Origin: Schmidtea nova
Taxonomy: Eukaryota
Direction: 5' to 3'
Assembly (NCBI GenBank): GCA_044892505.1
Contig: CM097883.1
Location: 34,472,001-34,526,936, forward strand
Length of the DNA: 54,936 nucleotides
The position numbers and the translations under genes are program-made. Every line of letters begins with the position of its first letter. Positions within the stretch are counted from its first letter, which is position 1. Below the pieces are notes generated by a model. The model worked only from the letters and a program-made list of their open reading frames with translations, did not search any database and was not told the DNA's origin. Below are positions 12,966 to 38,290 of this stretch, piece by piece.

Positions 12966-14773
12966 TACTTAAATAAACTTTAAATTATTATGACTTAATT
13001 CAAGATAGTAATAATTCTAGTATATGTCATTTGATAGTGTTGAGAATATCTGAATAATAAAATAAATTTATAAAAATAAATTTATTAAATGATTTGTGGG
13101 AAATGGATAGAATAAACAGTACACAGGTCTAGGAAAAATCAATGAAATCAAACAATGAAACAAAACAAGGTTATTATTAATTAACATTACAAAACAACAA
13201 CAAAAATATTAAGTCAAGACTCGCTTATCTCGACAGCTTGTATGAAATAACGAATTGGTCACAGGAGAAGCCGGGAAAAGAAAATGAAAAGGAATTTTAT
13301 ATCTTGGCAGCTATCAGAGATAACAGGATAATTTGAAAAAGGGGGGAATTGCGAAGGGCAATATTAACAAATGGAACTTATAAATAGTTATCTGTTAATT
13401 GTCAGCAAGCGACAGTATGTAAAACTACATTAATGTTGGGCCAGCCAAATAGAGAAAAAAATGAAATAAAAGTAGATTAATTAAAACAAAAAAGAGAAAA
13501 ATAAGGTAAAAAGGGGAATATTTATTTATTAAAAGAAAGGAATAATATAGTAAAAATATAGAATAACTAAGTACAAGCTATAAATAAAAATAAATGAATT
13601 TATAGATATTAACGGGCCCAGGAGACATCTAAAAACAAATAAAATACAAATAATAATAATTAAAACCAAATAAAAGTACTTGTTATTGAATAATTGTTTT
13701 TGAAACCCGGACCTCCAAGGAAGAATACAATCTAAAAAATAAAAATTAATTAGAATCAAAAACAATAATTAAAACCCACCATGAAATCGGCCAAATCCGA
13801 TTGGTCAGTCTAGATCAGACTGATCAGTATAAATACTGATCAGACTTTGGATAAAACAGACTTAATACCTAATCTTACAACGTCAGTTGAGAGTGTAAAA
13901 TTTAGCTCACTAATCAAATAGACTTTGAATTCTAGACGAACCGATCGAAGCAAACCCAGACGAATTAGGTATTTTGGTTTCTGTATTATTTTATTCATGA
14001 TTGTGTCATTTGCTTTGTCATTTATCTATTGATCTAATTATTTATGTATTTATGCATTCATGTGTTGAAATTTGTTATATGAATTAAACGTTATTGTGAT
14101 TAGACTCAACATTAAAATATATAATGATCATATTAATTTTGCGCCGTTGGGAGCTTTAGGTTCCCAAGGTGTCCGTCCGTGGCGTGGTGCTCGAGGGCTC
14201 CACACACGGTAAAGTAATAAATAGTAAAGCACAATTTTATTAGTAGTGGTTGAGACTTGCACATGGGACACCCAACAAATCCGGGAAATTATTTTCTGAT
14301 CATTTTAGCTACAGAGGGGACGAGAAATTTTTGATAAAGCTTAAAGATATGAAAGAAGTTGTTAACCGGGAGGAGGCACAATTTTTCACCCTCACCATAG
14401 CGCCGCTGTTTAATAAACGTCTAATAAACCTTAGGAAAATTATGTCGACCGCGTTTGGTACAAAAGAGCGTTTTTTTCGAATAAACTAGGGATACATGAC
14501 GGGAGAGAGCTTCCGTTTTGAGTTACCAATATTTTGAAACTCCAAGCAGACGAATCACCATTTTTTTCGTCTATCAAATTGATCATAAACAGATAAAGCT
14601 AAGTAGATACGAGAGTAATGCATACTGTAACAAACAACAGTTTTTTCTTGATTTCAGCTAAGGTCTAAGGGGAAGGCAAATAATAAAGGAATCACGATGA
14701 GAGATAACATTTACTATGATTAATTATTGATGTAAATTGTAACTATTATAAAATTCAGCATCGTTTTAGAATC

Positions 14774-15250
14774 ATGGCTAAGCATAGATACACTATCAAA
14801 AAACGACAAGAACGAGCCCGAGGTAGCCCATTAAAGCCGGCTCCTTTCGAGATTTTACAGCAAATCCACCAAAAGATGTGGGCATGGCGCCGAGAGCTCG
14901 AAACCGCCTGTCCATTTACAGTATGGGACCATCCACGGCATCACGTATGGTACCGGGGATGCGCTAGTTGGCCAATCATTCCAGACGAGGAATACGAATC
15001 ATGGCACGCCGCCTGGTTCATCATGATGTTGGACAAAGGTGGATTCCCGAGATGTGTCATTTATTGGGGGTTCATTCCAGCCTCTACCTTCAAGGAATTG
15101 GGGTTCAAGTTCAATACAGCCATCCGACCCCTCCGAGAAGCTGAGAGAATCCGTTTCCAGCAGGCCTCGTCCAATAACACAGGAATCCATACAAATTTGC
15201 AGATCCGCTCGGTATTTTCGTATCGAGGAAAAATGACCGAGGATGAATAG
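14774..15250 (+). CDS. LTR-encoded ORF A, 158 aa, Trp-rich, unknown function
   Basis: ATG-initiated GC-richer island between AT-rich spacers; TTTTAG 4 nt before the ATG; AATAAA about 30 nt after the stop. No family recognised. Confidence 0.6.
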   Translation: MAKHRYTIKKRQERARGSPLKPAPFEILQQIHQKMWAWRRELETACPFTVWDHPRHHVWYRGCASWPIIPDEEYESWHAAWFIMMLDKGGFPRCVIYWGFIPASTFKELGFKFNTAIRPLREAERIRFQQASSNNTGIHTNLQIRSVFSYRGKMTEDE

Positions 15251-15566
15251 CTGAATCAATGGCCGCCTGTTTTTAAATTAAATAAATGTTTTAAAGAATT
15301 CTGAAATGTTCGTTTTGTTAATAGTGTTGTCATGTAGATTTAGTATTGTAGTTGTTATAGTCATTAGGAAATTCATTTATTAATATAAAATTAGTTCAAT
15401 AAACCTTTTTAGTCTTCAATGATTAGATAGTTAAATAATTTTGTAGAGAACTCAACAATTAAAAACATTAATATACATCTCGTTTAATAATAATAATAGT
15501 TGTTTAAATAAAATAACATTGTTGATAGGCCCTCCAGTGAATTTATCGTTATAATCTTCAGACAAC

Positions 15567-16151
15567 ATGCCGACTTCAGAAAATTCGAAGAAAATCATGG
15601 GACAAATTCAAGAGAGAAAGCTGAGGGACCAGCAGCGACAGATCAAGCGACTCACGGTCGCCAATGATGAATTGAAAGCGAAGTGGTTCTCGCCCGAACA
15701 GATGAAGGACCAGTCGAAAAAACTCGAGCGAGTGCAGGAAGCATTGGCTACAACCAAATTGGAATTAGATGCCGTCCAGCGAGAACTCCGAAATTGCCTG
15801 AACGCAGTAACAAGAAGTTACATCGACTCCGAATTACGAGCGCTAATCCGGCCGATCACGGCTCAGCGCTGGATACAATGCACTCACCAAGATGTCGCTT
15901 GCGGGACGGAAGAGGAAATCATCATGGCACCCACTCTTACAACGGAAGATTTGCCTATTTTTCCCAGTGATCCCCCGAGAACAATAGCGTCAGCACCGGT
16001 CATAAACCCACAGCTTCGAAAACATCGAATGGGATCGCGACAGCGTCGTCGTCGCCGAGAATTTGCAAGGCGCCTGGACGAACAAATCCACCACCTGAAC
16101 TCCTTAACCGAAGCAGAGTTAATCCAGGAGATTAGCCTGGAGTTTGAATAG
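15567..16151 (+). CDS. LTR-encoded ORF B, 194 aa, coiled coil plus Arg-rich motif
   Basis: ATG-initiated; heptad-rich N-half; RMGSRQRRRRREFARR; CTTCAG 5 nt before the ATG; AATAAA about 40 nt after the stop. Confidence 0.65.
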   Translation: MPTSENSKKIMGQIQERKLRDQQRQIKRLTVANDELKAKWFSPEQMKDQSKKLERVQEALATTKLELDAVQRELRNCLNAVTRSYIDSELRALIRPITAQRWIQCTHQDVACGTEEEIIMAPTLTTEDLPIFPSDPPRTIASAPVINPQLRKHRMGSRQRRRRREFARRLDEQIHHLNSLTEAELIQEISLEFE

Positions 16152-16684
16152 GAAAATCTCCATGTAACATAACAACCTGTCTTTATTATTTTAATAAAGT
16201 ATTACTGTGTAAATTTTTTCTCTCATCGTGTGATTTCACTAAATAAAATAAGACTACATAAGTAATTCGTAGAACTAAAAATCGCATCGTAAAACCTACA
16301 CCGACCGTTACTTAGCAGCGAGAGTTTTCGTGGGCTTGTAGAACAGCGAGAGAGAGCGTCATTGGGAAAAGCGTGTGATAGATCATAAGTATATGTAGTA
16401 TAAAATTCAGTAGGAAACGAACATCCATAGAATGTAAATGCGTAAGACCTTCTATCGGCAGCAAGAACCCGAGGGAAGATAAATGGGGAGTAGTTTTGGC
16501 GACAAAGCTCACCTGCCCATCATTTTTCCACCACCGTATGCAGTACCAACTTGACTAGTGGGGAATAGTCAAGGGCATACGCGTGTAGTAGTCATGTTAT
16601 GTATGGTTATGGGCGCGGAATCCCTAGTATGATTAATTGTTTATTTGAATTACTTAAAACCCACCCATAATCCCAGCATAAATT

Positions 16685-16702
16685 TGGGGGCTCAGCCGGG
16701 AT
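16685..16702 (+). other. Primer binding site, tRNA-Pro-like
   Basis: TGGGGGCTCAGCCGGGAT matches 16/18 to the canonical tRNA-Pro PBS TGGGGGCTCGTCCGGGAT; it begins 6 nt after the LTR end. Confidence 0.8.
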
Positions 16703-17006: not shown

Positions 17007-17468
17007 ATGGAGGAAAAACTGAAAGAAATCGAGGAATTTTTCAACACCGAGAACGATACATTTGAGACAGTCTGCGAAAAAATAACCCGAATAAGAGCAT
17101 CCGAATATGAGGAACCTACGACACAAACTGAGGAAACAACTGAGTTAATAAAAATCATAGAGAAAGTAAATAAACTCGATATAAATACGCGATATAAATG
17201 GTACAAAGCACGATTAGAGGATGCCGAGTTGAATATCAGATGCCGACATATAGAACAGCAGTTAAGCCTAACATATAACCGATGGATGTCGCAAGGGGTC
17301 GAGGCAGCAAAACAATATAAACAATGTTACATATGCGAAAACAGTGAAATCCAAATAATGTTTTTACCATGTGGACATTTTCGATTCTGTAAAAACTGTG
17401 CGAATAAGTGTGATGAGTGCCCCATGTGCAATTTCTCTGTAGCTGATAAAATTGTGGTTTATTTATAA
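17007..17468 (+). CDS. Retroelement-borne RING E3 ligase, IAP/MDM2-type C-terminal C3HC4 RING, no BIR domain, 153 aa
   Basis: CYICENSEIQIMFLPCGHFRFCKNCANKCDECPMC...KIVVYL* has the LPCGH core and hydrophobic C-terminal tail typical of IAP-type RINGs; helical N-terminus. Confidence 0.85.
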   Translation: MEEKLKEIEEFFNTENDTFETVCEKITRIRASEYEEPTTQTEETTELIKIIEKVNKLDINTRYKWYKARLEDAELNIRCRHIEQQLSLTYNRWMSQGVEAAKQYKQCYICENSEIQIMFLPCGHFRFCKNCANKCDECPMCNFSVADKIVVYL

Positions 17469-17942
17469 TAAATATTTAGAGTGTGTTAATATATTGTATC
17501 GAATGACAAAGTCAAGGGAGCAATCAACAATGTTAATTAATTTTTGAGCTACTGTCAAGTAGTCCGTTAAGCACCCATTGGCAGGTACCAGTTGATCAAC
17601 CCACTCGGGGTATATAGAAAGGGGCCAATCGCAAATGTTGGAAAGCTTTTGTGATGTGATTGATCACCACATCCCGCATTAGTAGACCAACGCGATCTTT
17701 TTGTATATTTTGGTTGGGGAGAGAAATAGGGAAAACCCTGATGAGGTAAGATGCGCGCAGAGAAAATAATAAAAATGGAATTATGACTGATCAGCGAAAG
17801 AATTAGTAATAAAACAAAGAATCGAGGAATTATAGAGAAAAATAAGAGGTGCATAATCAGCTCGCATGAAATTGAGAGAACTCAGCTGAGAAATTGTAGT
17901 CGCTAGCGAAGTTAAGAATTACGATTAACCGGTTAAGGAAAA

Positions 17943-18098
17943 GTTATCAGCGGTTTGTCCCTTGAAACAAAGGGTTATTAGAATTTGTCCCTTGAAACAA
18001 AGGGTTATCAGCGGTTTGTCCCTTGAAACAAAGGGTTATTAGAATTTGTCCCTTGAAACAAAGGGTTATCAGCGGGTTGTCCCTTGAAACAAAGGGTT
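17943..18098 (+). repeat. Leader tandem array 1: five copies of TTGTCCCTTGAAACAAAGGG, alternating 31/30-bp units
   Basis: Direct read; ABABA spacer pattern. Confidence 0.95.
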
Positions 18099-18150
18099 GA
18101 GGCCAAAGAGCCATATTGAATGACCTAGCTAGGCGTTATTGAGAGATACG

Positions 18151-18308: not shown

Positions 18309-18351
18309 TTAATTAGAGGCCAAAGGAGCCAATAGGGATATCCGGATATAT

Positions 18352-18566: not shown

Positions 18567-19115
18567 TGATCGTCGACGATAATGAGAATAGTGCGCACCG
18601 ATAATAGAGAAATGCGAGTAAAGCTGATTATGCGACCTAAAATAATGCATGCAAGTAGAATTGAGAAATAAGAGCTGACCGGAAAGACCGGCAGAATTAA
18701 TAATTAGAGGCTAGCAGAGAGAAAGATAAAGAGATGGTAAAATAATAATCGAGTCAAATGACTCAGGGAATTAGAGCGTTCGAACGACAAATAAATTGGG
18801 AGACCGCGGGAAAAATAATTGATGTATTTTAATAACCGATAGATAATTGTTATGACTAAATAGATAATTGTGACTAGTATATAGATAAATTAAATAGACT
18901 TAAATAAAGGGGAATCTGGGAATGGGGAAAAATAATAGAAACCCAGTAATGAGAAGTCCCGTAAAAAGGGAATAAAAGCGCAACGATAACAATAGAGTAT
19001 CGTTGAAGTGACATTTGTATTTTAGATAAATCAATCAAACCAAACCAAGCAACCAAGGAAGAAAAGAATCGGAACACGATAAGACAGGAAAATTGAGTAT
19101 ACAAAAGTAATCCCG

Positions 19116-22100
19116 TTGAGAAAAGGAGAAAAGAGTGTCATAATAAAACCAGCAGAAAAGAATAAAGCTACCAAGAATAATAATCAGAAAGGCCTAAAAG
19201 GAAGTAAAGCAAGGCAAATAATAATACAAAAGTCGATTATCGAAAACGATAAATTATCAGTAACAAGCAACAGTTCAAGCAACAAAGAAAATCAAGCAGA
19301 ACCCGAGAGAAACCCAATAAGTGAAATAGAAGTCGACAAAACCAACAACGATTATATAGAAGAAATAGAAGACGAAGTAGAACAAGAAACAGAAAGTGAC
19401 GATACCGATAACGATAGTAAAGCATCAGATAACGAATCAGCAAAAGAAACTGAGATCGACCGAAATTCGAGTGACGAACCTAACAGTGAACTAGAAACAA
19501 GAGGAAACGAAAGTAAAATAACTACAGACAGCGGAATCGAAATGAGTGAACCAAGAGAAGAGATAAAAGACAAATTTTCCGGAGAACCGTTTAATGGAGA
19601 TGCGAGCAAACTGGAAACTTTCTTAAAAGAATTTGGCATATTCGTGGAAGTATGCAAGTGGAAACCAGAAACAACTGTAAGCAGAATTCAGCTATATTTG
19701 AAAGATAGCGCATTAGATCTATATTTGGAAGCAAAAAATGGAACTAATCCACCTACAAGTTGGTCAGCGATAAAGGACTTTTTCCAACAAACCTTTGGAA
19801 TAAACAAAGTATTGAATGAGGCATTCACGGAATTCTCAATGAGGAAACAAAAGATAAATGAATCGAATGCGGTATATGCGAGCGAATTGAAAAAGTTAGC
19901 AAAGTTGATCTTTAATCAAGACAGCCCAATAAATGAGGAGTTAATGGCAGCTATCTTTGTGGGAGGATTAAGAAGACCCGACATAAGAGCGCAAGTTGGA
20001 TGTCAAGGGTGTAAAACCATCGACCAAGCACTAGAAACAGCTAATAGATTTGAACTACACATGATAGGAAATGATGGTAGAATCTATTTAGCTATGGATA
20101 CAGCACAAAACGAACAAGAAGTGAACCTGAATAACCACATTCCAAATTCACAACAATTAAACCGACCACCACCGCAACGAAGGAATGAAGGGAATAAAGT
20201 ATCAAATTACGGAAATCAAAACAATTACAACCCCCAAGGACCAACGAAACAATGCAAAACATGTGGGAAATTGGGACATTGGCAACAAGAATGTTATCAG
20301 AACTTGAATTGTGGAAAATGTGGAGTAAAAGGGCATTCAGAGAGCAGATGTTACACAATAACCTGTTTTAATTGTGGACGGCCTGGACACCTATCAAGAA
20401 ATTGCGGACAAAGAAGCAATCAACGAGGAAACTGGCAGAATACCGGAAACCGACAAAACTATGGAAACCAACCAACTGGTGGAAATCGACAGAATTATGG
20501 AAATCAGCCAAATAATGGAAACCAACCGGAATACGGAAACCAACCAAATAGTAATAATAATAACCAAAATAAAAATACCACTAAAGAGATACATTTAATG
20601 CAAGAGGTCCAAAGATTGACGGAGCTGATAAACAATACAACCAGAGGAAATCCGCAAACAGGTCAACAACAAATCAATATGATGAGAAAAATAGAAAGCG
20701 AAAACGAACGATTGAATCGGGAAAGTCAAGCACGACATGCTCAGGAATGGGCAAGAATACAAAGAGAAGAGGAACAAAAACAGCAAGAAAGAGAACGACA
20801 ACCTCTAAGAATTAATATGATGAGAGCAACCAATCAAACAAATACCCACGAGAAAGAGACTGTACCAGAAATAAATCCAACAAACCCGAATCCAACCAAC
20901 AACGAAGGCCGAAAAGAGATAATACAAGAAGATGAAGAAGCAGAAAAAGAAACAGAAAAGGAAGTAGAAAAAGAAGGGAACCAAGAAGAGAAAAGGAAAC
21001 TCGGGAAAAGAGGAATGATGGTAATTTTGCCAAACAAGCACGTGTTTCGATTCCAATATAACATAAAAGAAGAAGTAGAAATATTGTTCAATAAAGTGAA
21101 TGAAATGGCTCCAGGAGTAACGAAACTGCCCAGAGAAGCATTCCTAAAAATAGAAGGTGCACCAGAAGTAAAATTGAAACTAACGGATACATGGGAAAAC
21201 CTGGGAGTAGTAGAGACAAAAAGAAATGTGATGGTAATCAAGGAAATAGAACCAGAAGGAATTCCATCGCCAGTGCGTCACGAAACACGAATCAGTCGAA
21301 TATTTAAAGGGAAAATGATACGAAGACGGTTGGGAGAAATAGACGAGTTAGAACGAAAAATGAGAAAGGTCGGAGTAGTAGACGACAAGAGTGAATCAAC
21401 ACAAAAAGCTATTAAAAGTGAAACAAGACCAACGGAAAATACACCAAGTGAAATCAACCAAATAAAACACATTAACATGTTGAGAGGCCAGGCAAAGAAA
21501 TTCTCAGATGACGAAGAGGATAGTGACGTCAGTAGTCTAGCCGGAGATATGCTAAACGAACCGGAAATTGAAGACAAAAAGATAGAAGTAGTAAAGACAC
21601 CAGAAACTATTCAAGTAAAAGAGGACGAGATCCAGAAATTATTAGATAACGCGCTAGAAGTAATATATAATGAGGAATTCATTGACAAGAAACACTATAG
21701 AAAATTCATGAGAGCAATATTACAAATGAACTATAAAGAGTGGTTACCAGGCCGAGAAGTAGAAACACTAAGCCAGTACGTAGGAAAATTATTAAAAGAA
21801 CCACTCCATGAATATATAATCCTAATAGAGATAAAAACATGTTTGCCAAGGATTTGGATCAAAACTCCACTCACGGAAGATATTTATCAATGGGTAGAAG
21901 ATAGATTAGGGAGTTCATATAAAAACAAATTCCTCTATTCACAGAATGGACTAGTGAAGAAAAGGACGCATTTGATAGAAACAGGCATATGGCCAGGAGA
22001 GGTGACAACACTATCGATATGCGATGATAAGAGAGAAGAGAACCTACAAGAAGTAGCAAAGGAAGCAAATATGTGTTTCGAGAAGAAGATAAAACCACGG

Positions 22101-26900: not shown

Positions 26901-29900
26901 ACACCGGTCCAGTATTAACTACAACAATCGAAATTAACGGAAGGGAAATTGAAGCGATGATTGATACAGGAGCAAATATCTCAGCAATAGATATAAAATG
27001 GATACCACAAGAACAAAGACGGGATATTGAGAGAACCAACGTTCACGTAATAGCATGCAGTAAAGAAGTAGTAGAAGTTTCCGGAAGATGGCGGGTAAAG
27101 ATAAAACATCAAAGCACGGAAATCGAAACGTACGTAGCAGTAATACCAGCACTGAGCGTACCATGCATTATAGGTACGGATCTGATGCCAGCATTATTTA
27201 AAGAAATAGTTATTGACCTCGGAACAATGAGATTAAAGGATAGGACAGGACAGATATGCGCAATAGAAGCAAAAGTAACAAGTTCGAAACAAATAATCGT
27301 ACCAGCACGGAGAGAGAAAATATGTTTCGTAAAAATAGATCCTACAATAGAAGGTGACATGATCTTTGAACCCAGTAAAAGATTTGAAAAGAGAAAGTCG
27401 TTGCCAATGGCAAGGGGATTAGTGAGTGCGAATGACAACGGAGAAATCCCGATAAATGTAGTAAATTTCGATGAGGAGGATAAAATAATTTATGAAAATG
27501 AAAGATTAGGTAAACTAACTCCAATGATAGATATCGAAATACCAATAAAAGAAGGAGTAAAAGAGGAGGAACCCACTTGGAACATTGATAGCCAACTATT
27601 AAATGAGGACCAAAAGAAACAGCTAGAAAGATTACTGATGGAATATAAAGACATATTCGCAACATCCGATTTAGATTTAGGGACATGCGACGTCACACTA
27701 CATACGATTCCACTAACAGACGAAACGCCGATTGCGTTAAGACCATACAAGTTAGCTGAAGCGCAAAAATCAGTAGCAGAAGCAGAGGTACAGAAAATGC
27801 TAGACGCAGAAGTAATTGAACCAAGCTGCTCACCGTGGCAATTCCCAGTTGTAATGGTGAAAAAGAAAGACGGAACACAACGATTTTGTATTGATTATCG
27901 GAGATTAAATGCAGTTACAAAAAGGGATACATACCCATTACCAGACATCAACGAGATGTTATTGACATTACAAGGAGCGGCATACTTTACATCATTAGAT
28001 TTGAAAAGCGGATACTGGCAAATTAAAATGAAGGAGGAAGACAAAGAGAAAACTGCTTTCACTATCGGAAGAGACTTGTACCAATTTAGGAAAATGCCAT
28101 TCGGACTAACCAATGCGCCAGCATCATTTCAAAGATGTATGAATTTCGTTACCCACGGCATAAAACAATGCATGGTTTACATTGATGACCTACTAATCTA
28201 CTCAAGCACATTTGAACAACACATCCAAGATATCAGAGATGTATTTGTGAGATTGAGACAATGGAAACTTAAGCTCAAACCATCGAAATGCGATTGGGCA
28301 AAAGAGAAAGTGACATTCTTAGGACATATTGTGTCCGCAAAAGGAAAGGAACCAGATCCCAGAAACATTGATAAAGTAAAAGAATGTCCAGTACCAAAGA
28401 CGATAACGCAGATCCAAGAATTTCTCGGATTATGCGGTTACTATAGAAAATTCATAAAGGATTACGCAGGAATTGCAAAACCAATCCAGGAGCTAGTAAA
28501 GAAAGACGTATCGTTCATATGGGGAAGCGAACAACAAACAGCCTTCGAAACATTACGAGATAAGTTAATAACTGCACCAATATTGGTTCACCCGGATTTC
28601 AAGAAGCCATTTTTACTCGCAACCGACGCAAGTGGATATGCAGCAGGAGCAGTGTTAGGACAATATGATGACGAGGGAAAAGAGCGGGTAATCGGATATT
28701 ATAGCAGAACATTCAAGAAACACGAGAAGAATTATTCAGTAACGGAAAGAGAAGCATTGGCGATAATATTAGCAATAAAACACTTTAAATATCTACTATG
28801 GGGACACATTATATGCATAACCACGGATCATCAACCACTGGTATGGCTAGGACAACATAAGGAAACATCCAGCAGGTTGATGAGATGGGCGATGCAATTA
28901 CAAGAATATTCACCAGATATAAAATTCAAATCAGGGAAAGCGAATGCCAACGCAGATTGCATGTCAAGATTAACGTTTCCAGAACTAACAGACCCAGAAG
29001 TGCAAAGAATATGCATAGTGATAGCAGAGGATTTGGATTTCAGCGAGTTGAAGAAAGATCAGCAAGAGGATAAAGAACTAAGACCCATCATAGAATTCCT
29101 AAGCTCACGAAATATGGATGTATTCAAAGACAATGCAGAGTTAAAGGAACACATGAGGAAATACCAACATCGATACACAATAGAAAAAGGATGGTTATTA
29201 ATACGAGATGGAGAGAAACGATTAATGTGTCTGCCAGGTAATAGACGAAAAGAGATAATAACTCAATACCATGACGGAAAGTTGGGAGGACACATGTCCG
29301 ATAAGAAAACATTAAATCGCATGAGACAAAAATATTATTGGCCAACAATGGACGAAGACGTAAAGGAATGGATAAAGAACTGTTTAACTTGTGCCACAAG
29401 AAAGGATAGTGGGAAGAAATGGAAAAATCCTTTAAAACCCATGCCAATACCAGCGGAACCAATGACTACCATTGCGATGGATGTAATAGGACCATTGCCA
29501 GAAAGTTTAAACGGGAATCAATATATATTGGTAATAACGGATTATTTGACTAAATTCCCTGAAGCATTTGCGATGCCGGATCAAAAAGCAAAGACCGTAG
29601 CAAGAATTTTAGTAGAGGAAATATGTTGTCGATACGGAACCCCGAAACAAATACTAACAGATCAAGGAACAAATTTTATGAGCGAAATATTAGATGAAGT
29701 AACAAATTACTTCCGGATAGCTAAATTACGAACGTCACCATATCATCCGCAAACCAATGGACAAACGGAAAGATTTAACGGCACATTGATTCGAATGTTA
29801 TCCAATTATGTAAGCAAACACCAAACAGATTGGGATGAATACGTAAAGCTATGTCTAATGGCATACAGAATGTCGATACACGCAGCAACAAAATTGAGCC

Positions 29901-32900
29901 CATTTCAATTAATGTATGGAAGGGAATGCAATATGCCAATAGATCTTGAATATCAACCACCTTTGTCTCAATATATGGAGGAAGATGATTACGTCACCAA
30001 ATTCAAAGAACGAATGCAAGAGATATGGAAGACAGCAGAACTGAACATAAAGTTTTACCAAGAAAGTTACAAGGACCTACACGATCAAAAGAAAAATGTT
30101 AAAACAAATGATCTTAAACCAGGAGATTGGGTAATGATAGAAACCCCAGAAATAATACCAGGAACCGTTAAAAAACTACAAAGACCAGGAAAAGGCCCTT
30201 ACGAAGTTATATACAAAAAGGAAAACAATGTGAAGGTAAAACTTGTTAATCGACCATTGATACGACCAATATACGTTAATACATGCAGATGTAAAAAAGT
30301 ACCAAAGACAATAACCACAGCGCCAGAAGAACGGATAATAACCAGATCCCAAACAGCCAGAATGAATATGCTCAGAGCAACCAATGAAAGTACCGAAGCA
30401 GAGAACAATCAACGAGAAAAAAGAAACAAGGAAATTGTACTAAAAGCCAGAGAAATAATGGGAAAATGGCATGTCAGAGACGATATATTAAGAGATATTC
30501 AGTCGATAATTAGTGATTACGCAAGGGGACTACCAACAAAACCAGTCATTTCAGAACTACTGGAAAAGATTCCAGAAATACTTTCACTAGAAGACATAGG
30601 AGGACAACCAGCACTACATAACGCCATAAAATGGGGAGAAGTAGAGAGAGTAAAAGAATTTCTAAAAATCGCTAAGGAAACAAACCAACACCTTGGTTTT
30701 GGGAATAGCGAACAAGAAACACCATTAATGGTAGCAACCATCTACAAATCGGATAAAGCAATAATAGACCTTTTGATAAATGCCGATTTCAACTGGACGG
30801 AACGTGATAGAGAAAACAAAACAGTCTTGAATCACGCAATATGGAGCTCAAATCAGATAATGCTCAAACAAATAATCGAGAAGGCCACTTGGGAAATAGA
30901 CGAACTGATCAAAGGTGATATAATCAAGGAGGCAATAAAAATCGGTAACTGCAAAACAATACGCAAGCTAATAAAATGGAAAAGATCCGAAAATGATACA
31001 TGGGTATTAAATATAAACGAAGTATACAGTAAAGGACAAAACGCGTTATTACAAATTCTATTAAAATTCGTTTGTGATCAGAAAACACTGTTAACGCTAT
31101 TAGATAGAGGAAACATCATAATGTCCAAAAACAAAGAGGAGTGTAAATTCGAAAGTGAAAAAGAAGCATTATTCAGGAATATTAGGGAATGGTGTACAAA
31201 ATCGCTAACCAAGACGATAACTTACAAAGATATATCCAATTTTCAAGACAAATACAAAACGGTGGAGGAGGAGTATGACAAACTAATAGACATATTAAAC
31301 CACCCCGAAAAATGCAAACAATTCCTATGTCGAAAGGAAAGAGAAAGCAAAAGGAAATTTACACCACTTTTCAGCGCAGAAGTACCATATCAAGAAAGGT
31401 TAGATGCGATACAGGACAAAGCAAAAGAACTATTACCAGAATTCGAAAATTCTAAACATACACTGGAGATACTCGGAGCAATTGTGGAAAAGGTACATGC
31501 ATACGCGGAAGGAACTTACAATGAAAACGATATGATGATCATAAAAAGAGAAATGCCAGTGACTTTCTTATTAACAAAGAATGGAGTATTGCCAATACAT
31601 AGAGCCTTACGAGCAAGAAAAGAGAGGAGGGTAGTCGAAATTGCACGGTTGATGCAAGATTGCGGAAGTGACATGAACATGAAAGATAAAAAGGGAGATA
31701 CCCTCATGATATTTGCAGCAAGAGCGAACACAAAAACCCGAGTGTTACAGGAACTGTACGAAGCAGGTGCAGGACTCATGGGAAGAACTAACAAAGACAG
31801 CTCAATACTAGACGTAGCGTTGTTAACGCACAATTGGGAAGTGATAAATTTCATAAAAACAATCACAAATCAGGAGGAAATAGAATACCTTACAAGGACA
31901 GTTAAAAAAGCTAGCGTACATTCCATGATGCATAACGCTGAACTAACTGAAGTAATACTCAATTGGATGAACCCAAACACCAATGAACCAGCATTCAGGA
32001 TCAACGAGTGCATGGAACAAGGCCAGAATTTATATATAAAGTGTGCATTAATAATAAACAAATGGCCAAAGATAATAGATATCTTCATGAGAAGAAAAGA
32101 TTTACGATTCACAAACAACCCAAAGGAAACAGAACGTACGGACAAATGGAAAGAACTAATGAAAACGTACCTTAATAATTGGATAAAAGCCAAGAAAGAG
32201 ATTCTAGATTGTAAATTAACCGATAAGGAAATACCTAAGCAGGCAGAAACACAAGAATACGAAGCAAGTATACTCACAACCATAACGTATGAAAAAATGA
32301 TAGAAGCAATTAATGTCGAGGACGACATTTTCAACGACCAAAGGGGAGGTGACAATACAGGAAACGACGACGATAGTACTCGAGAAAATCCAGAGGATCA
32401 TGAGTTATCCGATAAAGAGGACAGTGAAGAGAAAGGAAGGGACACAGAGAAAAATGATAAGAACAATGAATTTGGGAAACAAAGAAACAACAACTATAAA
32501 AATAAAAACGAAGTAAAAAGAACAGGCTACAAACAAACAATAAACCCATTCTTTAAACCAGAACTATTATTACTAACGGTAATCATGACCTTAATTAGTC
32601 CAACTCAAGGAATGATATGTGAAGAAAAAGCGACAATACAAATTGGAAACGCAAAAGGAATCGAACGAGTATGTTGGTCAAAAAAGGACAAAATATCGGG
32701 ACAAAATAGTCCAATGGATTGCAGGATCTCAGAATATGAACAAGAAATCATAGAGATCGATGACTTAGAGCTAGATACTTGGTACAGAATGTGCACCGTT
32801 CGGAAACCAAAGGATCCGAGATCACATAAGACAATTGCATGTGCAAATTACCTAACACCCAAGGTAACCATAACAGTACAGCAGTCATCCAAAGGAGACT

Positions 32901-34504
32901 ATGTCGTAGGAAAGTGTGGAAGAACAGAGACACAAGGAACAAAAAACAAGAAACCTCAGACAATAGACAGACGAACAACGCCAACTATACAAATTACCAT
33001 AGACAGGCCCGAAGTAAGAGTAACCACAAATGAAACTGAAAGAGTGACCTACCAAGCAGAATTACTATGTTTAGCACTCATATTAACAATGTTAAAACGG
33101 TTAGAAGAAGGGATAGACATTGACACAATGGCAGTAACAGAGATGAACGACACCCAAAACACCAACCCAAAGTGTTGGGCCAGAAGCAACGAAGAAATTG
33201 GCGTAAGCGAAATAAAGACGAGTCGGAAAAGGAAAACAAATAAAGTAACCAAGATATCAGAAGTAAAAGCAGACAGGACGTATGAACTATGTTTACTAGA
33301 AAAAGAAAGACACAAGAAAGGAACGACAATTTGTAAAACATTTCAACCTGGGGAAACAATAAAGTTCATACGACGAGGAAGAAGAAATAAACGCACCAAA
33401 CGGAGAACAACTATAATGTTAGAGTTAACCGGAATAGAACCGGACGTCAAAGGCGTATGCTGGAAGAAGCAGGAAAAGAAAACAAACCAGAATACACCGC
33501 CGCAATGTCGAACAAACAGAGGAACAACCACAATACAGATAGAAGGGTTAGAAAGTAATCAAACGTACGAAATATGCCTGATCAGGAAGAGCGACAAAAT
33601 AACAGTAAATGAACTGGAATGCAAAATATATAAAACACCCACCAGAACAAGAATTGGAAAGACAACGCGAAAAAGCAGAAGACAACGGAACAAAGGAAAA
33701 ACGAGGTATACCACTACTTTTAAACCTAATGGACAACAGAAAAACCAAGAAATACAAATAAAAACCGAAAAGAATACTACAGCAACTCTTATACTATGGA
33801 GAATAGACAATAAAACGTTAGAAATATGTTGGGCAGTAGTCCAGGAACAAAAAGAAAGACAGCCACGATACTGCGAAAACGTAAAAGGAAAAGAAGAAAT
33901 GAGTATCAAAAATCTGAAATTTAATAGAGAATACGAGATATGTGCGGTAGAAAAGACGGACATATTAGGAAATCAGCAGGAAAAATGCGAAACGTACTAC
34001 ACACCGGTAAACTCAACGTCCAAAGGGAAAGTGAGAAAACTCGAATTTAAAGAATTAAGTCAGACAACGAAACAAATGGACGCGGAACAAGTAGTAATAG
34101 ACCCTTACGCAAGATGGACGCCGGAAGAAGTAATTAAAGAAGTTAAAAGAAAACAACAAGAACGAGAACAACTACTAAATAAACTAAAGGGACAATACGG
34201 ACCAATGATTAACCAGAGTGAAATTACGAAGATGGACGTAAACAAACAAGTTAGAGAACTAATTGGTCTGGGAATACTAGCAGCAACTATTCCAGTAATA
34301 ACAGTATTATTAATAATATGGATATATGATGTATTCAACAAGAAACCAATAACACATTGGCCAGATATAAAGATTATGAACTACAGTATAGAATTACCGG
34401 AAGAAGTACAGAAAGAATTTCAAAGGAGGACGAAAGGCAAAGAATTTTGGAGACAAATAGAAGATGAAGAGCGATACGAAGGAAAGACAGTGATGGTGAT
34501 ATAG
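23891..34504 (+). CDS. pol: 3,537-aa polyprotein: Bcl-2-like, envelope glycoprotein, PR, RT, RNase H, IN, ankyrin repeats, FN3-like membrane protein
   Basis: DTGA protease (D at 26963), YIDD RT (28178), ATDAS RNase H (D at 28625), HHCC plus D,D(35)E integrase (D 29480, D 29660, E 29768), GPY motif (30194); the extra domains are listed separately. Confidence 0.96.
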   Translation: MDPANVVIKSREEKRRDQWDLCLKKLNKIAVTKEKETTQTYQGEEWISKMLMEILAIIDPELKKWWRINEISERAKSLHSAIAPILPELIKEKTRSNHLDWQGTTMLIKKLTEGAETDNKYLIAMAYTIYNLLTLSRGRLKPTALERHIKNTAKIIEKEIEPYIISKGGWETFTKTNQKKNQAKNMKKKFEEILGELEKEKSGTGNGKSSLNLSSIIMMMLIWMISTDGATAFEVFDCDQMALGEKYSLRGTEQCKDATPTELKTLKKRQLYHVYQEAELIRTMVRECKVYKTRFAFYCGHRHYSAIVMPGTERESVMLQGEDCEKLFKHGEVETRDRVKIRGKTGVILQQTYYVAGAITGGEGYCQGATYPIFGVAATNLVVIDTYTVELKTYEAFFDPTTGEMKTLPMCKIESNTCQTGMSTLTYQIRGKECQLQLLKEAEFDEIQGKTFQEEEEDEAARGKILQDTVRGEKKIETRTQEKQIKMRNTPTVLITSDADIGMRFVKGKTALKCGVAMLETNYPGIFVSKQEVPSAKRKVHTNDVKLHLYMNNKMDFLFHRGQASLQKVYYDLINNDCILNREILKTKLAVAITNPDSAMPLLPLREGHFGRVVGEVMYVYICKKTNAKVATMTKLQPGQCTNELEIEYKGKVRYVQPVTRIINPVSFEPNPFNCSNAYGPLYQKPDGNWVMFPSRTEVPAPREFELMQLSKGRKFKDVDVSNMGFYSAKDLEAARQNILFPARREAVLSSIVTITGGTNYQGGPNYELLLSPAHFKKATENMMKAMWGRFLIFGQMMAGILGVILIIQIIRVIITQMLACFDIYKREKKVNWKLVVGFLPFLAKTMVLHGHSKDIHRIKRLLKILAKMKGTDEEVGRKFKKIMNNEQARQQLKKERKGLWERMKGYRTQDDSSDDDDDDNEGGQVFKNQVPQYVEKNPAEMWKCYAPPPTMYQEPTPGMRQNTMQMMPMTNIYPMIPEDYRTRRCRSVDPQGDSHTIAVMSSNTGPVLTTTIEINGREIEAMIDTGANISAIDIKWIPQEQRRDIERTNVHVIACSKEVVEVSGRWRVKIKHQSTEIETYVAVIPALSVPCIIGTDLMPALFKEIVIDLGTMRLKDRTGQICAIEAKVTSSKQIIVPARREKICFVKIDPTIEGDMIFEPSKRFEKRKSLPMARGLVSANDNGEIPINVVNFDEEDKIIYENERLGKLTPMIDIEIPIKEGVKEEEPTWNIDSQLLNEDQKKQLERLLMEYKDIFATSDLDLGTCDVTLHTIPLTDETPIALRPYKLAEAQKSVAEAEVQKMLDAEVIEPSCSPWQFPVVMVKKKDGTQRFCIDYRRLNAVTKRDTYPLPDINEMLLTLQGAAYFTSLDLKSGYWQIKMKEEDKEKTAFTIGRDLYQFRKMPFGLTNAPASFQRCMNFVTHGIKQCMVYIDDLLIYSSTFEQHIQDIRDVFVRLRQWKLKLKPSKCDWAKEKVTFLGHIVSAKGKEPDPRNIDKVKECPVPKTITQIQEFLGLCGYYRKFIKDYAGIAKPIQELVKKDVSFIWGSEQQTAFETLRDKLITAPILVHPDFKKPFLLATDASGYAAGAVLGQYDDEGKERVIGYYSRTFKKHEKNYSVTEREALAIILAIKHFKYLLWGHIICITTDHQPLVWLGQHKETSSRLMRWAMQLQEYSPDIKFKSGKANANADCMSRLTFPELTDPEVQRICIVIAEDLDFSELKKDQQEDKELRPIIEFLSSRNMDVFKDNAELKEHMRKYQHRYTIEKGWLLIRDGEKRLMCLPGNRRKEIITQYHDGKLGGHMSDKKTLNRMRQKYYWPTMDEDVKEWIKNCLTCATRKDSGKKWKNPLKPMPIPAEPMTTIAMDVIGPLPESLNGNQYILVITDYLTKFPEAFAMPDQKAKTVARILVEEICCRYGTPKQILTDQGTNFMSEILDEVTNYFRIAKLRTSPYHPQTNGQTERFNGTLIRMLSNYVSKHQTDWDEYVKLCLMAYRMSIHAATKLSPFQLMYGRECNMPIDLEYQPPLSQYMEEDDYVTKFKERMQEIWKTAELNIKFYQESYKDLHDQKKNVKTNDLKPGDWVMIETPEIIPGTVKKLQRPGKGPYEVIYKKENNVKVKLVNRPLIRPIYVNTCRCKKVPKTITTAPEERIITRSQTARMNMLRATNESTEAENNQREKRNKEIVLKAREIMGKWHVRDDILRDIQSIISDYARGLPTKPVISELLEKIPEILSLEDIGGQPALHNAIKWGEVERVKEFLKIAKETNQHLGFGNSEQETPLMVATIYKSDKAIIDLLINADFNWTERDRENKTVLNHAIWSSNQIMLKQIIEKATWEIDELIKGDIIKEAIKIGNCKTIRKLIKWKRSENDTWVLNINEVYSKGQNALLQILLKFVCDQKTLLTLLDRGNIIMSKNKEECKFESEKEALFRNIREWCTKSLTKTITYKDISNFQDKYKTVEEEYDKLIDILNHPEKCKQFLCRKERESKRKFTPLFSAEVPYQERLDAIQDKAKELLPEFENSKHTLEILGAIVEKVHAYAEGTYNENDMMIIKREMPVTFLLTKNGVLPIHRALRARKERRVVEIARLMQDCGSDMNMKDKKGDTLMIFAARANTKTRVLQELYEAGAGLMGRTNKDSSILDVALLTHNWEVINFIKTITNQEEIEYLTRTVKKASVHSMMHNAELTEVILNWMNPNTNEPAFRINECMEQGQNLYIKCALIINKWPKIIDIFMRRKDLRFTNNPKETERTDKWKELMKTYLNNWIKAKKEILDCKLTDKEIPKQAETQEYEASILTTITYEKMIEAINVEDDIFNDQRGGDNTGNDDDSTRENPEDHELSDKEDSEEKGRDTEKNDKNNEFGKQRNNNYKNKNEVKRTGYKQTINPFFKPELLLLTVIMTLISPTQGMICEEKATIQIGNAKGIERVCWSKKDKISGQNSPMDCRISEYEQEIIEIDDLELDTWYRMCTVRKPKDPRSHKTIACANYLTPKVTITVQQSSKGDYVVGKCGRTETQGTKNKKPQTIDRRTTPTIQITIDRPEVRVTTNETERVTYQAELLCLALILTMLKRLEEGIDIDTMAVTEMNDTQNTNPKCWARSNEEIGVSEIKTSRKRKTNKVTKISEVKADRTYELCLLEKERHKKGTTICKTFQPGETIKFIRRGRRNKRTKRRTTIMLELTGIEPDVKGVCWKKQEKKTNQNTPPQCRTNRGTTTIQIEGLESNQTYEICLIRKSDKITVNELECKIYKTPTRTRIGKTTRKSRRQRNKGKTRYTTTFKPNGQQKNQEIQIKTEKNTTATLILWRIDNKTLEICWAVVQEQKERQPRYCENVKGKEEMSIKNLKFNREYEICAVEKTDILGNQQEKCETYYTPVNSTSKGKVRKLEFKELSQTTKQMDAEQVVIDPYARWTPEEVIKEVKRKQQEREQLLNKLKGQYGPMINQSEITKMDVNKQVRELIGLGILAATIPVITVLLIIWIYDVFNKKPITHWPDIKIMNYSIELPEEVQKEFQRRTKGKEFWRQIEDEERYEGKTVMVI
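23903..24415 (+). other. Bcl-2-like domain at the N-terminus of the polyprotein
   Basis: EIEPYIISKGGWETF aligns with Bcl-xL BH2 HLEPWIQENGGWDTF and is preceded by a hydrophobic alpha5-like helix. The BH1 NWGR motif is degenerate. Confidence 0.7.
24521..26356 (+). other. Envelope glycoprotein: internal signal peptide, Cys-rich ectodomain and TM anchor; chuvirus-glycoprotein-like
   Basis: Signal LSSIIMMMLIWMISTDGATA|FEVFDC; motifs CKVYKTRFAFYCG, GYCQG, ETNYPGIF, LYMNNKMDFL, GEVMYVYIC, CTNELEIEYKG...PVTRII recall chuvirus-type G proteins; TM at 26261-26356. Family call is from memory. Confidence 0.75.
30590..32100 (+). other. Ankyrin-repeat region (two clusters) after the integrase
   Basis: GQPALHNAIKWG, ETPLMVA, KTVLNHA, GVLPIHRA, GDTLMIFAA and SSILDVA are TPLHxA-type repeats with D/N-x-x-G hairpins. 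Confidence 0.8.
32558..34504 (+). other. Second secretory module: signal-like segment, four Cys-containing FN3-like repeats, TM helix, short tail
   Basis: ELLLLTVIMTLISPTQG|MICEE; a repeated CW..C..I..L....Y.+C....C..Y.TP pattern; TM LIGLGILAATIPVITVLLIIWIY at about 34259-34327. Confidence 0.65.
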
Positions 34505-34629
34505 GAGGCGGGATATGACTGTAAATAATAGTGTAAATAACAATGCATTACCGTAATAGTATGGGTATCGATATTATAAAAATATAAAAAGAGAAATCGA
34601 GAAAACGATTAATGTATATAATTTAGAAA

Positions 34630-34986
34630 ATGAACGAACAGGAAGAAATAGCAGAAACTACTATGGCTATGCGATGGAAAGCCCAGTGTGACATGTTAAT
34701 ACGAACAATCAACTCACTACAAAATCAGTTAATTGAGAAACAGAATTTGTTATCCGAAAGTTATAATAATAGTTTTGAACAACTCCACAGAATCGAGGAG
34801 CAACAGAGATTGATAACGCAACTTACCAGAGAGAATCAAGTGATGAGCGACATAAATCAGAGACAAGCAATAGAGATAGACCGTTTAACAATGGGAGAGA
34901 CAGAAGAAGCAGAGGATGGATGGACAAATTGGGCAATAAACAGATCAGAAAACGACCCAGAACCAGATTCAACAAACGAGCCGTAG
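34630..34986 (+). CDS. Accessory coiled-coil protein with acidic tail, 118 aa
   Basis: ATG ORF with the element's A-rich codon style, heptad pattern, and AATAAA at 34990. Confidence 0.7.
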   Translation: MNEQEEIAETTMAMRWKAQCDMLIRTINSLQNQLIEKQNLLSESYNNSFEQLHRIEEQQRLITQLTRENQVMSDINQRQAIEIDRLTMGETEEAEDGWTNWAINRSENDPEPDSTNEP

Positions 34987-35076
34987 ATAAATAAAGCGAA
35001 AAATTGTAAATATGTAAAACAAAAACAAGAAAAATCAAAAAATAGATAACAAATCAAGTGTATATATCATTGTAGA

Positions 35077-36459
35077 ATGAATACAGAAGGAAAAGCCGAA
35101 GAGCGGATAATCGAAATTTTGAGAGCCGAGAACAGGAAATGGAGTCTGAGACTCACTTGTGTAAATTGTAAAAACATAATATTGAAACCAAGACAAACCC
35201 TATGCGGATGCAGAGTATGTACCAAATGCATACACGAGTTAAGTATGAAAAGACCACCAGAATGTCCAGAATGCAAAGAAGGTCAAATAAAATTCGAAGA
35301 AACCGGACCAGATAGAGCAACTCAGAGAGAAATCATGAACACGAAAACCGAATGTATAAATCAACCATGTATATGGCAAGGACAAATACGCGATCTCGAG
35401 AACCATCTGGAGAACTGCGAAGAGAAGAGAACTGAATGTAACAAATGCCAACAAAAAATAACTATAAAGAATAAAGAGCAGCACAAAGATGAATGTAAAG
35501 AAGAGGAAAGTCTATGCGAATATTGTGGAACTCGAGAAACGAGGAGAAAGATCGAAGAAGAACACCTGAATATAAAAGAGGAGAAAGTATGTAGACAATA
35601 TGTAGGAATATGTTCAAACGAATGCGAGATAACGGTAGAAGTAAAATTACAAGAACATTGGAAAGTGTGCACGGAGAAACCAAGGGAATGTCCTTATAAC
35701 AAACAGGGATGTATGGAGAAAAGAACGCAAAAAACCATGAAACAACATCTGGAGGAAGCATTACTAAAGCATGCGGAAATGACAAACGAAGCAACAAAAG
35801 AAACCGAACAAACAATCAAAAAATTAGAAAGAGAAATAGAGTCACACAAGATAATGGTAAACCTACTGTTGGAAACCAGAGAGCAATTCGAACTAACACG
35901 AGAAAAGATGGAGGAAAAGATAAAAGCTATCGAAGAACTGGCTAAAGGAATGAAAATCCAGTACAACAAACTCACCCAGGATACCGAGGAAAAGTTACCA
36001 ATCGCACCATATGTGTGGAAAGTGACAGATTTTAGAAACAAATTAACAGAGGCCAGAAATATGACGAAAACAGCAGTAATAAGCCCACCATTTTATTTAT
36101 GGAGAAACGGAGCTAAAGTGAGATTGAAGCTATACCCAAATGGAGACGGAAGAGGACGAGGAACACATGTGTCAATATTTTTCTCGCTATGTAAAGGAGA
36201 ATACGACGACCTAGTAGAATGGCCCTTGAAAGTAGGAGTCATCATTAGAATCAGAAGTGTAACAAAACCAGTAGAAAAATTCTTTGAGACAGAGAAACAT
36301 GCGAGTACGAGCGAGAAACCAACCACAGAATGTGGATTAGCAGCGGGAGAACCAATGTTTATAACGAAAGAAAGCCTATGGGAACGATTATATGCAGACA
36401 CCCTATACATAGAAATGGAAAGGAATGAGAAAGCGGATAGAAAAGAATGGTTGACGTAA
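35077..36459 (+). CDS. TRAF: Full-length intronless TRAF homolog (RING, TRAF zinc fingers, coiled coil, MATH), 460 aa
   Basis: CVNC..PRQTLCGCRVCTKC..CPEC; zinc fingers (CINQPCIWQGQIRDLENHLENC, HWKVC..CPYNKQGC); MATH YVWKV..SPPFY..LYPNGDGRGRGTHVSIFF..GEYDDLVEWPL resembles TRAF2/3/5. Confidence 0.93.
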   Translation: MNTEGKAEERIIEILRAENRKWSLRLTCVNCKNIILKPRQTLCGCRVCTKCIHELSMKRPPECPECKEGQIKFEETGPDRATQREIMNTKTECINQPCIWQGQIRDLENHLENCEEKRTECNKCQQKITIKNKEQHKDECKEEESLCEYCGTRETRRKIEEEHLNIKEEKVCRQYVGICSNECEITVEVKLQEHWKVCTEKPRECPYNKQGCMEKRTQKTMKQHLEEALLKHAEMTNEATKETEQTIKKLEREIESHKIMVNLLLETREQFELTREKMEEKIKAIEELAKGMKIQYNKLTQDTEEKLPIAPYVWKVTDFRNKLTEARNMTKTAVISPPFYLWRNGAKVRLKLYPNGDGRGRGTHVSIFFSLCKGEYDDLVEWPLKVGVIIRIRSVTKPVEKFFETEKHASTSEKPTTECGLAAGEPMFITKESLWERLYADTLYIEMERNEKADRKEWLT

Positions 36460-36574
36460 CAAGAGAAGTGATCGTGTAAATAATATGTACAGTTAAATAC
36501 CCAAAAATTATTATATAAACAAAAAATAACTGATATATAAACCGATTAAAAAATTTTTTTTTGAAATTATAGCA

Positions 36575-37636
36575 ATGGGAAATATCGAAGTATGCTTACA
36601 GGAAATTACGATGCATCAAGCAGAAGCGATTAGCGATCATCTAGAACAGATTGAAATATGGGTCAATGCATATTATGGAAAGCAAGAGGAGATAGAGAGA
36701 CAAGCCGAATTATTAAAAGAAGCGGAAAGATCAAGTCAAAGAAGTCGAGAAAAAATAGAAGAAGTATACAAAATGCTACAACAACAAAAGGAATATTACC
36801 AGAGAATGATGAAAGAGCGACGAGAGGAAAGAGACAGACAGCAGATGGAAGCTGAACACAAGATGTATTCGATTACAGAACAAGCAAGATACTGGAAGAA
36901 AGAAGCGAAAGAATCTTACGAAAAAGCTAGAGAAATAATAGAAAGGACAGCTTATAGTGATGATTGGAAGTTATATAAAGAGATCGATGAACTAAAAGAC
37001 GAGTTAGAGCAAAAAATCAACCAGGAAGTGTTAAATAAAAGATGGAATACAAAAAGACAGCAATTTATCCGCGAACAAGCAAAGAAAATTAAAGGACTAA
37101 CCTATCAAGTTCAAAGAATGGGAGAAGAACTAGCTAATCAAGAACAACTGAAAACTATGCTCACCGGAATATGGAATCAGAAAGAAGAAGAGATGAAGAG
37201 AGATATAAATGGTTATCAAGGGGTGATTACTCAAAAGAAAATAGAGCTAAAAAGAACCAGAGAAAGGTTAAAGGAAGCGAAACAAAGTTATGAGGAAAAT
37301 TTAACGAATTTGATGAAAGAAAACGAAGAATTGAAACAGAAACGAGTAACAGTATCAGTAATACCCAAAGAACCAAGTATAACGGCAGCCGTAACAAAAA
37401 TGATAAAAGAAGACGAACAAAAGACAAAAGTAATCGAATTAGAGAAACAAATAGAAACATTAACAGAACAAGCAAATTACCTAGAATATTTGCTAGACGA
37501 GGAGATCCAGATATCTCACATGTATCGAGATGAAGTCGAAATGTGGAGGAGCAGGGTTGTTTGGATACCACTCCCCACGAACCAAGTAGAGCCTCAGGAC
37601 GAAGGTTTCTATGAACCAAATGAGACGATTGTGTAA
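36575..37636 (+). CDS. Accessory long coiled-coil protein, 353 aa
   Basis: ATG ORF rich in E/K/Q heptads; AATAAA overlaps the stop. No family recognised. Confidence 0.75.
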   Translation: MGNIEVCLQEITMHQAEAISDHLEQIEIWVNAYYGKQEEIERQAELLKEAERSSQRSREKIEEVYKMLQQQKEYYQRMMKERREERDRQQMEAEHKMYSITEQARYWKKEAKESYEKAREIIERTAYSDDWKLYKEIDELKDELEQKINQEVLNKRWNTKRQQFIREQAKKIKGLTYQVQRMGEELANQEQLKTMLTGIWNQKEEEMKRDINGYQGVITQKKIELKRTRERLKEAKQSYEENLTNLMKENEELKQKRVTVSVIPKEPSITAAVTKMIKEDEQKTKVIELEKQIETLTEQANYLEYLLDEEIQISHMYRDEVEMWRSRVVWIPLPTNQVEPQDEGFYEPNETIV

Positions 37637-37717
37637 ATAAAGCGGAAAATATATTTTTGTAAATAATTGTATGAAATGTAGTGTCAAATTGTATTGACCT
37701 ATCTGTAAAGAAACAGT

Positions 37718-38290
37718 ATGAAAAAGCTCAGAATACCGATATTCCTATACCTAATAACAATCACCCTACAAAGAGAAGATCTTCAACTCACAGAGAAGGA
37801 GCTACGAGCCCTACCCGAGAAAACCTATCAAGAACTAGATAAACTAATCAGCGAAGCAACACAAGAAATCACCCAACTTCAACAGATAACATCAGACAAC
37901 CCAAACGATGAAAAATTTCAACAGGTCCTATATGAACATCGAATCAAATTGAAAACAATCAGAAAAACCCTAAAGGAAGGTCGAGAACCCATAAAAAGCT
38001 TAGCCCAAGCAGAGATAGAATATCAAGAAAAATGGATCATCGCAATTATAATAATCCTTGCACTCAGCGTGACCATTATCGCGATCACAATCCTCATAAC
38101 ATCATACCGAGTGAAGATCTTAAAACAAAAACATGCCATCCTGAACCGAACAACAATACAAGACATCAGAACCCAAAAGCGAATGAGAAAACACCTAAAC
38201 CGAATCCAAAGCCACTACGAACTACGAACAATCAGCGAAAGAACCCCAATCCAATCCAATACCAATCATGAAATCAAAGAGCTTGTGTAA
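37718..38290 (+). CDS. Accessory type I membrane protein, 190 aa
   Basis: N-terminal signal-like MKKLRIPIFLYLITITLQ, helical ectodomain, TM WIIAIIIILALSVTIIAITILITSY, basic tail. Confidence 0.75.
   Translation: MKKLRIPIFLYLITITLQREDLQLTEKELRALPEKTYQELDKLISEATQEITQLQQITSDNPNDEKFQQVLYEHRIKLKTIRKTLKEGREPIKSLAQAEIEYQEKWIIAIIIILALSVTIIAITILITSYRVKILKQKHAILNRTTIQDIRTQKRMRKHLNRIQSHYELRTISERTPIQSNTNHEIKELV

Follow-up and report, generated by a model that had tools for sequence, protein, structure and literature searches.

Giant gypsy elements of planarians, known as Burro or GYPSM1, encode a gag-env-pol polyprotein of about 5,000 amino acids (PMC6431247). Apoptosis and ubiquitin genes are found on elements of the Burro type, one of which has been reported to protect planarian stem cells (cited in PMC13465017). 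Spliced subgenomic RNAs are likewise already known from gypsy elements and from retroviruses, among which the foamy viruses have their major splice donor in the R region of the long terminal repeat (LTR; PMC3694450), and HIV-1 has four donors and eight acceptors (10.1101/2024.12.09.627634). In this study I describe a Burro-like Ty3/gypsy retrotransposon in a stretch of 54,936 nucleotides (nt) from Schmidtea nova (assembly GCA_044892505.1, contig CM097883.1, positions 34,472,001 to 34,526,936 of the forward strand; hereafter the window), in which seven accessory genes besides gag-env-pol each have a YAG (TAG or CAG) a few bases ahead of their ATG. How a retrotransposon expresses seven accessory genes is addressed here by exact predicted splice junctions and, for one of these, by a genomic relic.

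The element spans positions 13434-41739 of the window. Like Burro/GYPSM1 (PMC6431247), it is giant and has a single gag-env-pol polyprotein with env between a putative Bcl2-like region and the protease, a mononegavirus-type fusion protein, ankyrin repeats and a RING gene, and its MATH/TRAF domains lie on a separate open reading frame (ORF), as in the element from D. tigrina (PMC6431247). Unlike Burro, for which a length above 30 kb is the criterion, it measures 28.3 kb; it has a RING only and no BIR by Pfam, its TRAF ORF lies downstream in a four-gene 3' cluster, and two of its ORFs are situated within the LTR. The element is classed here as Burro-like and not as one of Burro1-4, and its closest relatives with the same layout stand at 52-57%. 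The passages searched in the Burro literature describe no scheme of seven or eight acceptors and no intron or genes inside the LTR; those in PMC6431247 contain no splicing model, and a text search of PMC8532177 gave no mention of splicing. The Burro1 paper (Lee et al. 2026) may cover part of the scheme.

Results

The preliminary description of the window had listed eight ATGs as starts of accessory genes, each with a YAG 1-6 nt upstream, and had put chance at about 1 in 6 per site. All eight YAGs are present, at distances of 4, 5, 3, 6, 3, 1, 2 and 1 nt, but the ATG at 23891 is not a gene start and was rejected as such: a frameshift near 23.9 kb interrupts the window copy, and elsewhere gag and env-pol occupy one frame. 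All 16 comparable copies, out of 17 examined (one was without anchors), carry them as a single open frame. The layout of the element recurs in two sister families, E, with a nucleotide identity of 67% in the 3' block, and F, with 78%, and family E aligns to the gag and env-pol parts in one continuous frame. The ATG of gag itself, at 19542, was omitted from the earlier tally; its YAG is 10 nt away and falls outside the pattern. The chance estimate was a fair one, as a YAG precedes 17% of the ATGs that are out of frame (48/276) and 16% of those in non-coding sequence (10/64), and the control that had been suggested, in-frame internal ATGs, gives 30/194 (15.5%) as against 7/7 accessory starts. 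With a background of 0.155-0.17, the corrected tally of 7/7 accessory genes has p ~2-4e-6, or p ~1-3e-5 when gag is added (7/8), for a distance window of 1-6 nt that was set post hoc.

The motif is conserved in the sister families. A YAG lies 0-9 nt before the homologous methionine in 43/43 gene-copy pairs of family E and 45/45 of family F, where the aligning methionine was chosen and an earlier in-frame ATG sits upstream of the acceptor in some copies; with the strict first methionine the counts are 41/43 and 37/45. Internal ATGs give 15/59, 19/59 and 47/194 in the same 0-9 nt window. These are three related families with non-independent copies within each family, and not 88 independent trials. 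TAG and CAG are exchanged at five of the seven sites across families, while the distance from YAG to ATG drifts between 0 and 9 nt; at the RING gene, for instance, the window has TAG, and family E and most copies of F have CAG. Exchange and drift are also seen ahead of the two genes inside the LTR, ORFs A and B, whose proteins are only 19-30% identical across families, and these LTR genes retain the YAG although blastn fails to align the LTRs of the window family with those of a sister family. Such exchanges with a drifting distance point to selection on a 3' splice site, for which plain inheritance is insufficient. They also exclude that the YAG is there as an upstream stop codon, a candidate rejected because CAG replaces TAG in the sister families.

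A matching donor is found in the LTR. The best-conserved LTR block in the window family, E and F is a promoter with a reverse CCAAT box and a TATA box (13799..13839; this and all following features of the element are on the forward strand), and the cap site would lie near 13860. From this putative start, a common leader exon of about 110 nt with no ATG (13860..13968) runs up to a donor GT at 13969. In aligned LTRs the CCAAT/TATA block is followed by an exon of about 85-115 nt up to the GT, a pattern that is weaker in F: family E has AG/GT 109-113 nt past the TATA motif in 11/11 LTRs among those listed, and family F has A/GTA 133-142 nt past it in 7 LTRs. The GT-AG intron thus delimited within the LTR (13969..14769, 801 nt) holds 14 upstream ATGs, which its removal would clear from ahead of ORF A. 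A scan of the non-coding parts found a single other strong donor-like site, at 17745, which was rejected as a second major donor as it is not retained in E or F, and no donor-like sites were found in the four 3' spacers.

One genomic copy lacks exactly this intron. A probe made of the exon end closely followed by the ATG had two matches 24,258 bp apart (G000:C2:349.65-349.68 Mb), which are the two LTRs of a single copy, each without exactly 13969-14769 (GT...AG). The copy has its own target-site duplication, and its LTRs are identical at 2437 of 2438 nt. The donor had been predicted from the LTR alignment before the probe located it joined to the AG before 14774. An acceptor-side probe at ORF A, serving as positive control, returned the same two sites only; the unspliced donor is retained at 88 LTR sites as against these 2 spliced ones. 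The simplest reading is that this copy derives from an RNA that was spliced in its 5' LTR part and then reverse transcribed, and since reverse transcription copies a change in the 5' LTR into both LTRs, the intron would be missing from both. The join therefore supports splicing in cis at the first acceptor. The sequence pattern, its conservation and this one donor-acceptor junction, at ORF A, are what the sequences show.

The four 3' genes are separated by short spacers, of 125 nt before accessory ORF a1, 90 nt before the TRAF-like ORF, 115 nt before a3 and 81 nt before a4, the lengths given in the preliminary description. An octamer, UGUA(A/U)AUA, occurs eight times in the element, each time within or edging these spacers (427 nt together); shuffles yield a mean of 0.3, and 0/2000 reach 8, for a spacer region that was drawn after the matches were known. 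The octamer is largely retained in E and F, with one after each stop, and may serve as a PUF site or in 3' processing. The first spacer (34505..34629) contains three of these Pumilio-type octamers, a TATA-like stretch and the acceptor ending at 34626. Each mRNA may end either in the following spacer or in the 3' LTR. In the former case the unit would resemble a leader that has a choice of acceptors and of poly(A) sites; an operon resolved by a spliced leader (SL) would fit the same anatomy.

For gag, a candidate eighth acceptor lies at 19010..19025 and is retained in family F. The 516 nt that follow it are free of ATGs, as against 25 ATGs in the preceding 1557 nt. Ahead of its first ATG, the gag frame stays open for 153 codons (19083-19541), and for 121 codons in E and 155-193 in F, with conserved motifs in all three families, and this conserved open frame suggests a non-ATG start for gag.

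Discussion

The reading I favour, with a probability of roughly 60%, is that one LTR leader is spliced in cis to all of these acceptors, as in complex retroviruses. The YAGs would be spliceosomal 3' splice sites. The single promoter of the 5' LTR would produce a long RNA with an ATG-free first exon of about 110 nt ending at donor 13969, and from this donor splicing in cis would lead to any one of seven or eight alternative acceptors; with each acceptor only a few bases ahead of a gene's ATG, that ATG would be the first on the mRNA. The acceptor at 19025 would serve the gag-env-pol polyprotein, and the unspliced RNA would be the genome. A common leader with many acceptors was one of two proposals in the preliminary description, and it gains from the conserved LTR exon and donor and from the join to the acceptor of 14774 in both LTRs, which shows the use of one acceptor; the cap site, the use of the remaining acceptors and the common donor for all of them are inferred.

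Several observations weigh against this reading. The junction is a single event, and its ends share a microhomology of 4 nt, so that a deletion by template switching could mimic it; 27,344 such pairs of 4-mers exist in the LTR, but a template switch would have to strike both the predicted donor and the acceptor named beforehand. Such deletions do occur, as two others examined in the window family lack GT-AG ends: at C1:325.8 Mb a truncated LTR is joined to internal sequence, and at C1:548.35 Mb about 9 kb of gag-pol are missing at an 11-nt overlap. The short LTR spacings at these two places had been considered as traces of splicing and were rejected, their breaks not being of the splice type. 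Probes for processed copies at the acceptors of B, RING, gag, a1, TRAF and a3 came back empty; for RING, gag, a1, TRAF and a3 this is expected, as joining the leader there removes the primer site, and only the join to B keeps it. Probes for spliced LTRs in E and F were empty or gave chance matches (8 of 33 loose matches checked). The family F donor has no exon-side AG; in family E an ATG occurs close to the expected cap site, and the 19025 acceptor reads AAG. The 3' acceptors are 20-24 kb away from the donor, some acceptor sites are purine-rich, and branch-point-like motifs are not enriched (3/8 sites, background 32/123). All support comes from DNA sequence. Four contigs over 21800-41750 look like DNA, with GT-AG ends at 0 of the 15 joints listed (of 23), and carry no weight either way.

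The other proposal had been trans-splicing of a host SL. For the first gene it is disfavoured, the junction found there being in cis, but the spacing of the 3' genes does fit an operon, and in a hybrid arrangement, which I regard as doubtful, the LTR genes would be cis-spliced and the four 3' genes would form an operon with cleavage and polyadenylation in the spacers and a host SL added at each YAG. Besides the octamer conserved after each stop, a poly(A)-signal hexamer, or a variant of it, occurs in three of the four spacers. The SLs of planarians end in ATG. The same is described for the SLs of parasitic flatworms (PMC12582326), and spacers of 81-125 nt match flatworm operons, whose intergenic distances peak at about 100 bp in Macrostomum (PMC8629364) and have a median of 99 bp in S. 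mansoni (PMC12582326). Planarians do trans-splice (PMC10899757), cis and SL splicing in flatworms often use common acceptors, and the gypsy element Cer1 is trans-spliced to SL1 (PMC3315495). However, the YAG-ATG distance is a multiple of three in 7 of 21 family-by-gene values, the level of chance, so no preferred frame points to an ATG supplied by the SL, and to make genomic RNA, the spacers would have to escape cleavage. A cis donor is moreover said to out-compete the SL at a downstream acceptor (PMC4558846). The genes are on the same strand and at most 300 bp apart, with an acceptor before each downstream ATG, as in SL-resolved operons, whose acceptors lack an upstream cis donor; here donor 13969 is used for ORF A, and none lies inside the 3' spacers.

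It is less probable still that the downstream genes have promoters of their own in or just before the spacers, with the YAGs belonging to initiator-like or short-leader elements. Internal promoters are used by the env genes of Tor3b/4b (PMC4402516) and by foamy viruses (PMC3694450), all three families retain a TATA-like stretch some 55 nt ahead of a1, and in family E a second box resembling TATA occurs 40-55 nt upstream of ORF A. However, A+T-rich spacers yield such words easily, spacers 2-4 retain none, a cap site would not be expected at an AG only 0-3 nt from the ATG, and ORF A is reached by the spliced leader exon. That the YAGs reflect chance, stop codons or translational coupling, by termination and reinitiation on a polycistronic RNA, is largely refuted: two of the seven window sites are indeed in-frame TAG stops and the distance window was chosen afterwards, but the CAG replacements are conserved, one copy has an exact GT-AG junction, and one to four other ATGs per spacer would intercept reinitiating ribosomes.

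Compared with complex retroviruses, the favoured arrangement of one leader spliced in cis shares a single short first exon, an LTR-internal donor that was used in cis (one event) and many predicted acceptors before accessory genes; an arginine-rich regulator (ORF B) and a structured RNA element are candidates for a further parallel. Seven acceptors are conserved, and use of the donor is demonstrated for one of them. In contrast to these viruses, Pol is of the gypsy type, the RNase H and integrase matching gypsy-type Pfam models, and env is in frame inside the polyprotein, which places the element outside the Retroviridae. Further differences are the genes in a 3.2-kb LTR, a size three times theirs and an export switch that is hypothetical here. 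Like Cer1 of C. elegans (PMC3315495), it is a gypsy element in a probable SL host, with spliced subgenomic and unspliced genomic RNA as the predicted products; Cer1 uses a single SL1 site to make a single spliced product, whereas the present element has a series of genes, and the join found is in cis. Oikopleura Tor3a (PMC4402516) is also gypsy-like and expresses a downstream gene through LTR-initiated splicing, whereas the Tor findings concern env only and Tor3b/4b use the internal promoter. Flatworm SL-resolved operons (PMC12582326, PMC8629364) have genes on one strand with gaps of about 100 nt and an acceptor directly ahead of the ATG, as here, but consist of host genes, while the present element has a working cis donor upstream. 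If one donor does serve all genes, the accessory genes could be expressed without the replication proteins, which would be a simple route to host benefit, and splicing control of the retroviral style would have arisen outside the Retroviridae. Probing for intron-less LTR copies offers a way to map splicing from the genome alone.

Other features of the element and its surroundings

The 5' LTR (13434..16678, 3245 nt, with TG...CA ends) contains promoter, leader exon, intron and ORFs A and B, and is 100% identical to the 3' LTR (38495..41739); a 4-bp target-site duplication flanks the element (13430-13433 / 41740-41743). The primer-binding site (16685..16702), which I take to be tRNA-Pro-like, is identical in family E and at the same place in family F. 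The window family is young and abundant, as 40/40 scored matches (531 candidates) are 99-100% identical and the motif preceding the 3' LTR matches 370 genomic sites. An Rfam search gave no match.

The seven accessory genes are ORFs A and B, the RING gene, a1, the TRAF-like gene, a3 and a4. ORF A (14774..15250, 158 amino acids) is the gene whose acceptor, ending at 14769, was used in the spliced copy; it belongs to no known family, with no match in Pfam and Atlas searches and a structure model that is unusable (predicted local distance difference test, pLDDT, 38). ORF B (15567..16151, 194 amino acids), with a putative acceptor ending at 15561, is predicted to form long helices, and its arginine-rich motif and C-terminal helix are retained in three families at about 29% identity; by resemblance it may be Rev-like. 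The RING-finger ORF (17007..17468, 153 amino acids, PF13920, E 2e-11) follows an acceptor ending at 17003. Outside the element, at 43842-44168, a RING ORF whose frame is open further upstream is 34% identical to it over 56 amino acids, and is a candidate for a host gene exon or a decayed copy.

The polyprotein (19083..34504, first ATG 19542, frameshifted near 23.9 kb as said) has the order gag, putative Bcl2-like region, env, protease, reverse transcriptase, RNase H, integrase, ankyrin. Pfam recognises gag zinc knuckles, a mononegavirus-type fusion protein (PF24664, E 3e-68), protease, reverse transcriptase, RNase H, integrase and ankyrin (PF12796); Bcl-2 (E 0.13) and Ubiquitin_4 (E 0.11) score weakly, and searches for dUTPase and against the PDB gave no match. 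Other gypsy families of the genome have a mononegavirus-type env within one ORF of about 3,400 amino acids, and the accessory series is absent from the stretches read.

In the 3' cluster, a1 (34630..34986, 118 amino acids, acceptor ending at 34626) is followed by the TRAF-like ORF (35077..36459, 460 amino acids, acceptor ending at 35075) with a TRAF zinc finger and a MATH domain (PF22486, E 2e-21), by a3 (36575..37636, 353 amino acids, acceptor ending at 36572) and by a4 (37718..38290, 190 amino acids, acceptor ending at 37716), which has a hydrophobic stretch. A large cluster of MATH-domain genes at G000:C2:405-455 Mb, apparently a host TRAF expansion, is a possible source of the TRAF gene of the element.

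Between the RING gene and gag, a long non-coding stem-loop (17573..17750), about 80% identical to family E, is the most conserved non-coding block. Three of its 65 pairs are compensatory, and z is only -1.66; it is a candidate packaging or export element. It seems unlikely to me that the entire programme of a complex retrovirus arose independently in a Ty3/gypsy lineage, with a leader joined to eight acceptors across 24 kb, octamers in the spacers setting the mRNA ends, and ORF B binding this stem-loop for export of unspliced RNA like Rev. Further along the leader preceding gag, three short tandem-repeat arrays occur (17943-18566), in whose place family E carries other arrays.

Elsewhere in the window, an intronless host gene for the scavenger decapping enzyme DcpS lies on the reverse strand at 5951-6895, and two inverted copies of another repeat, 82% identical, flank the element at 11133-11984 and 48502-49303.

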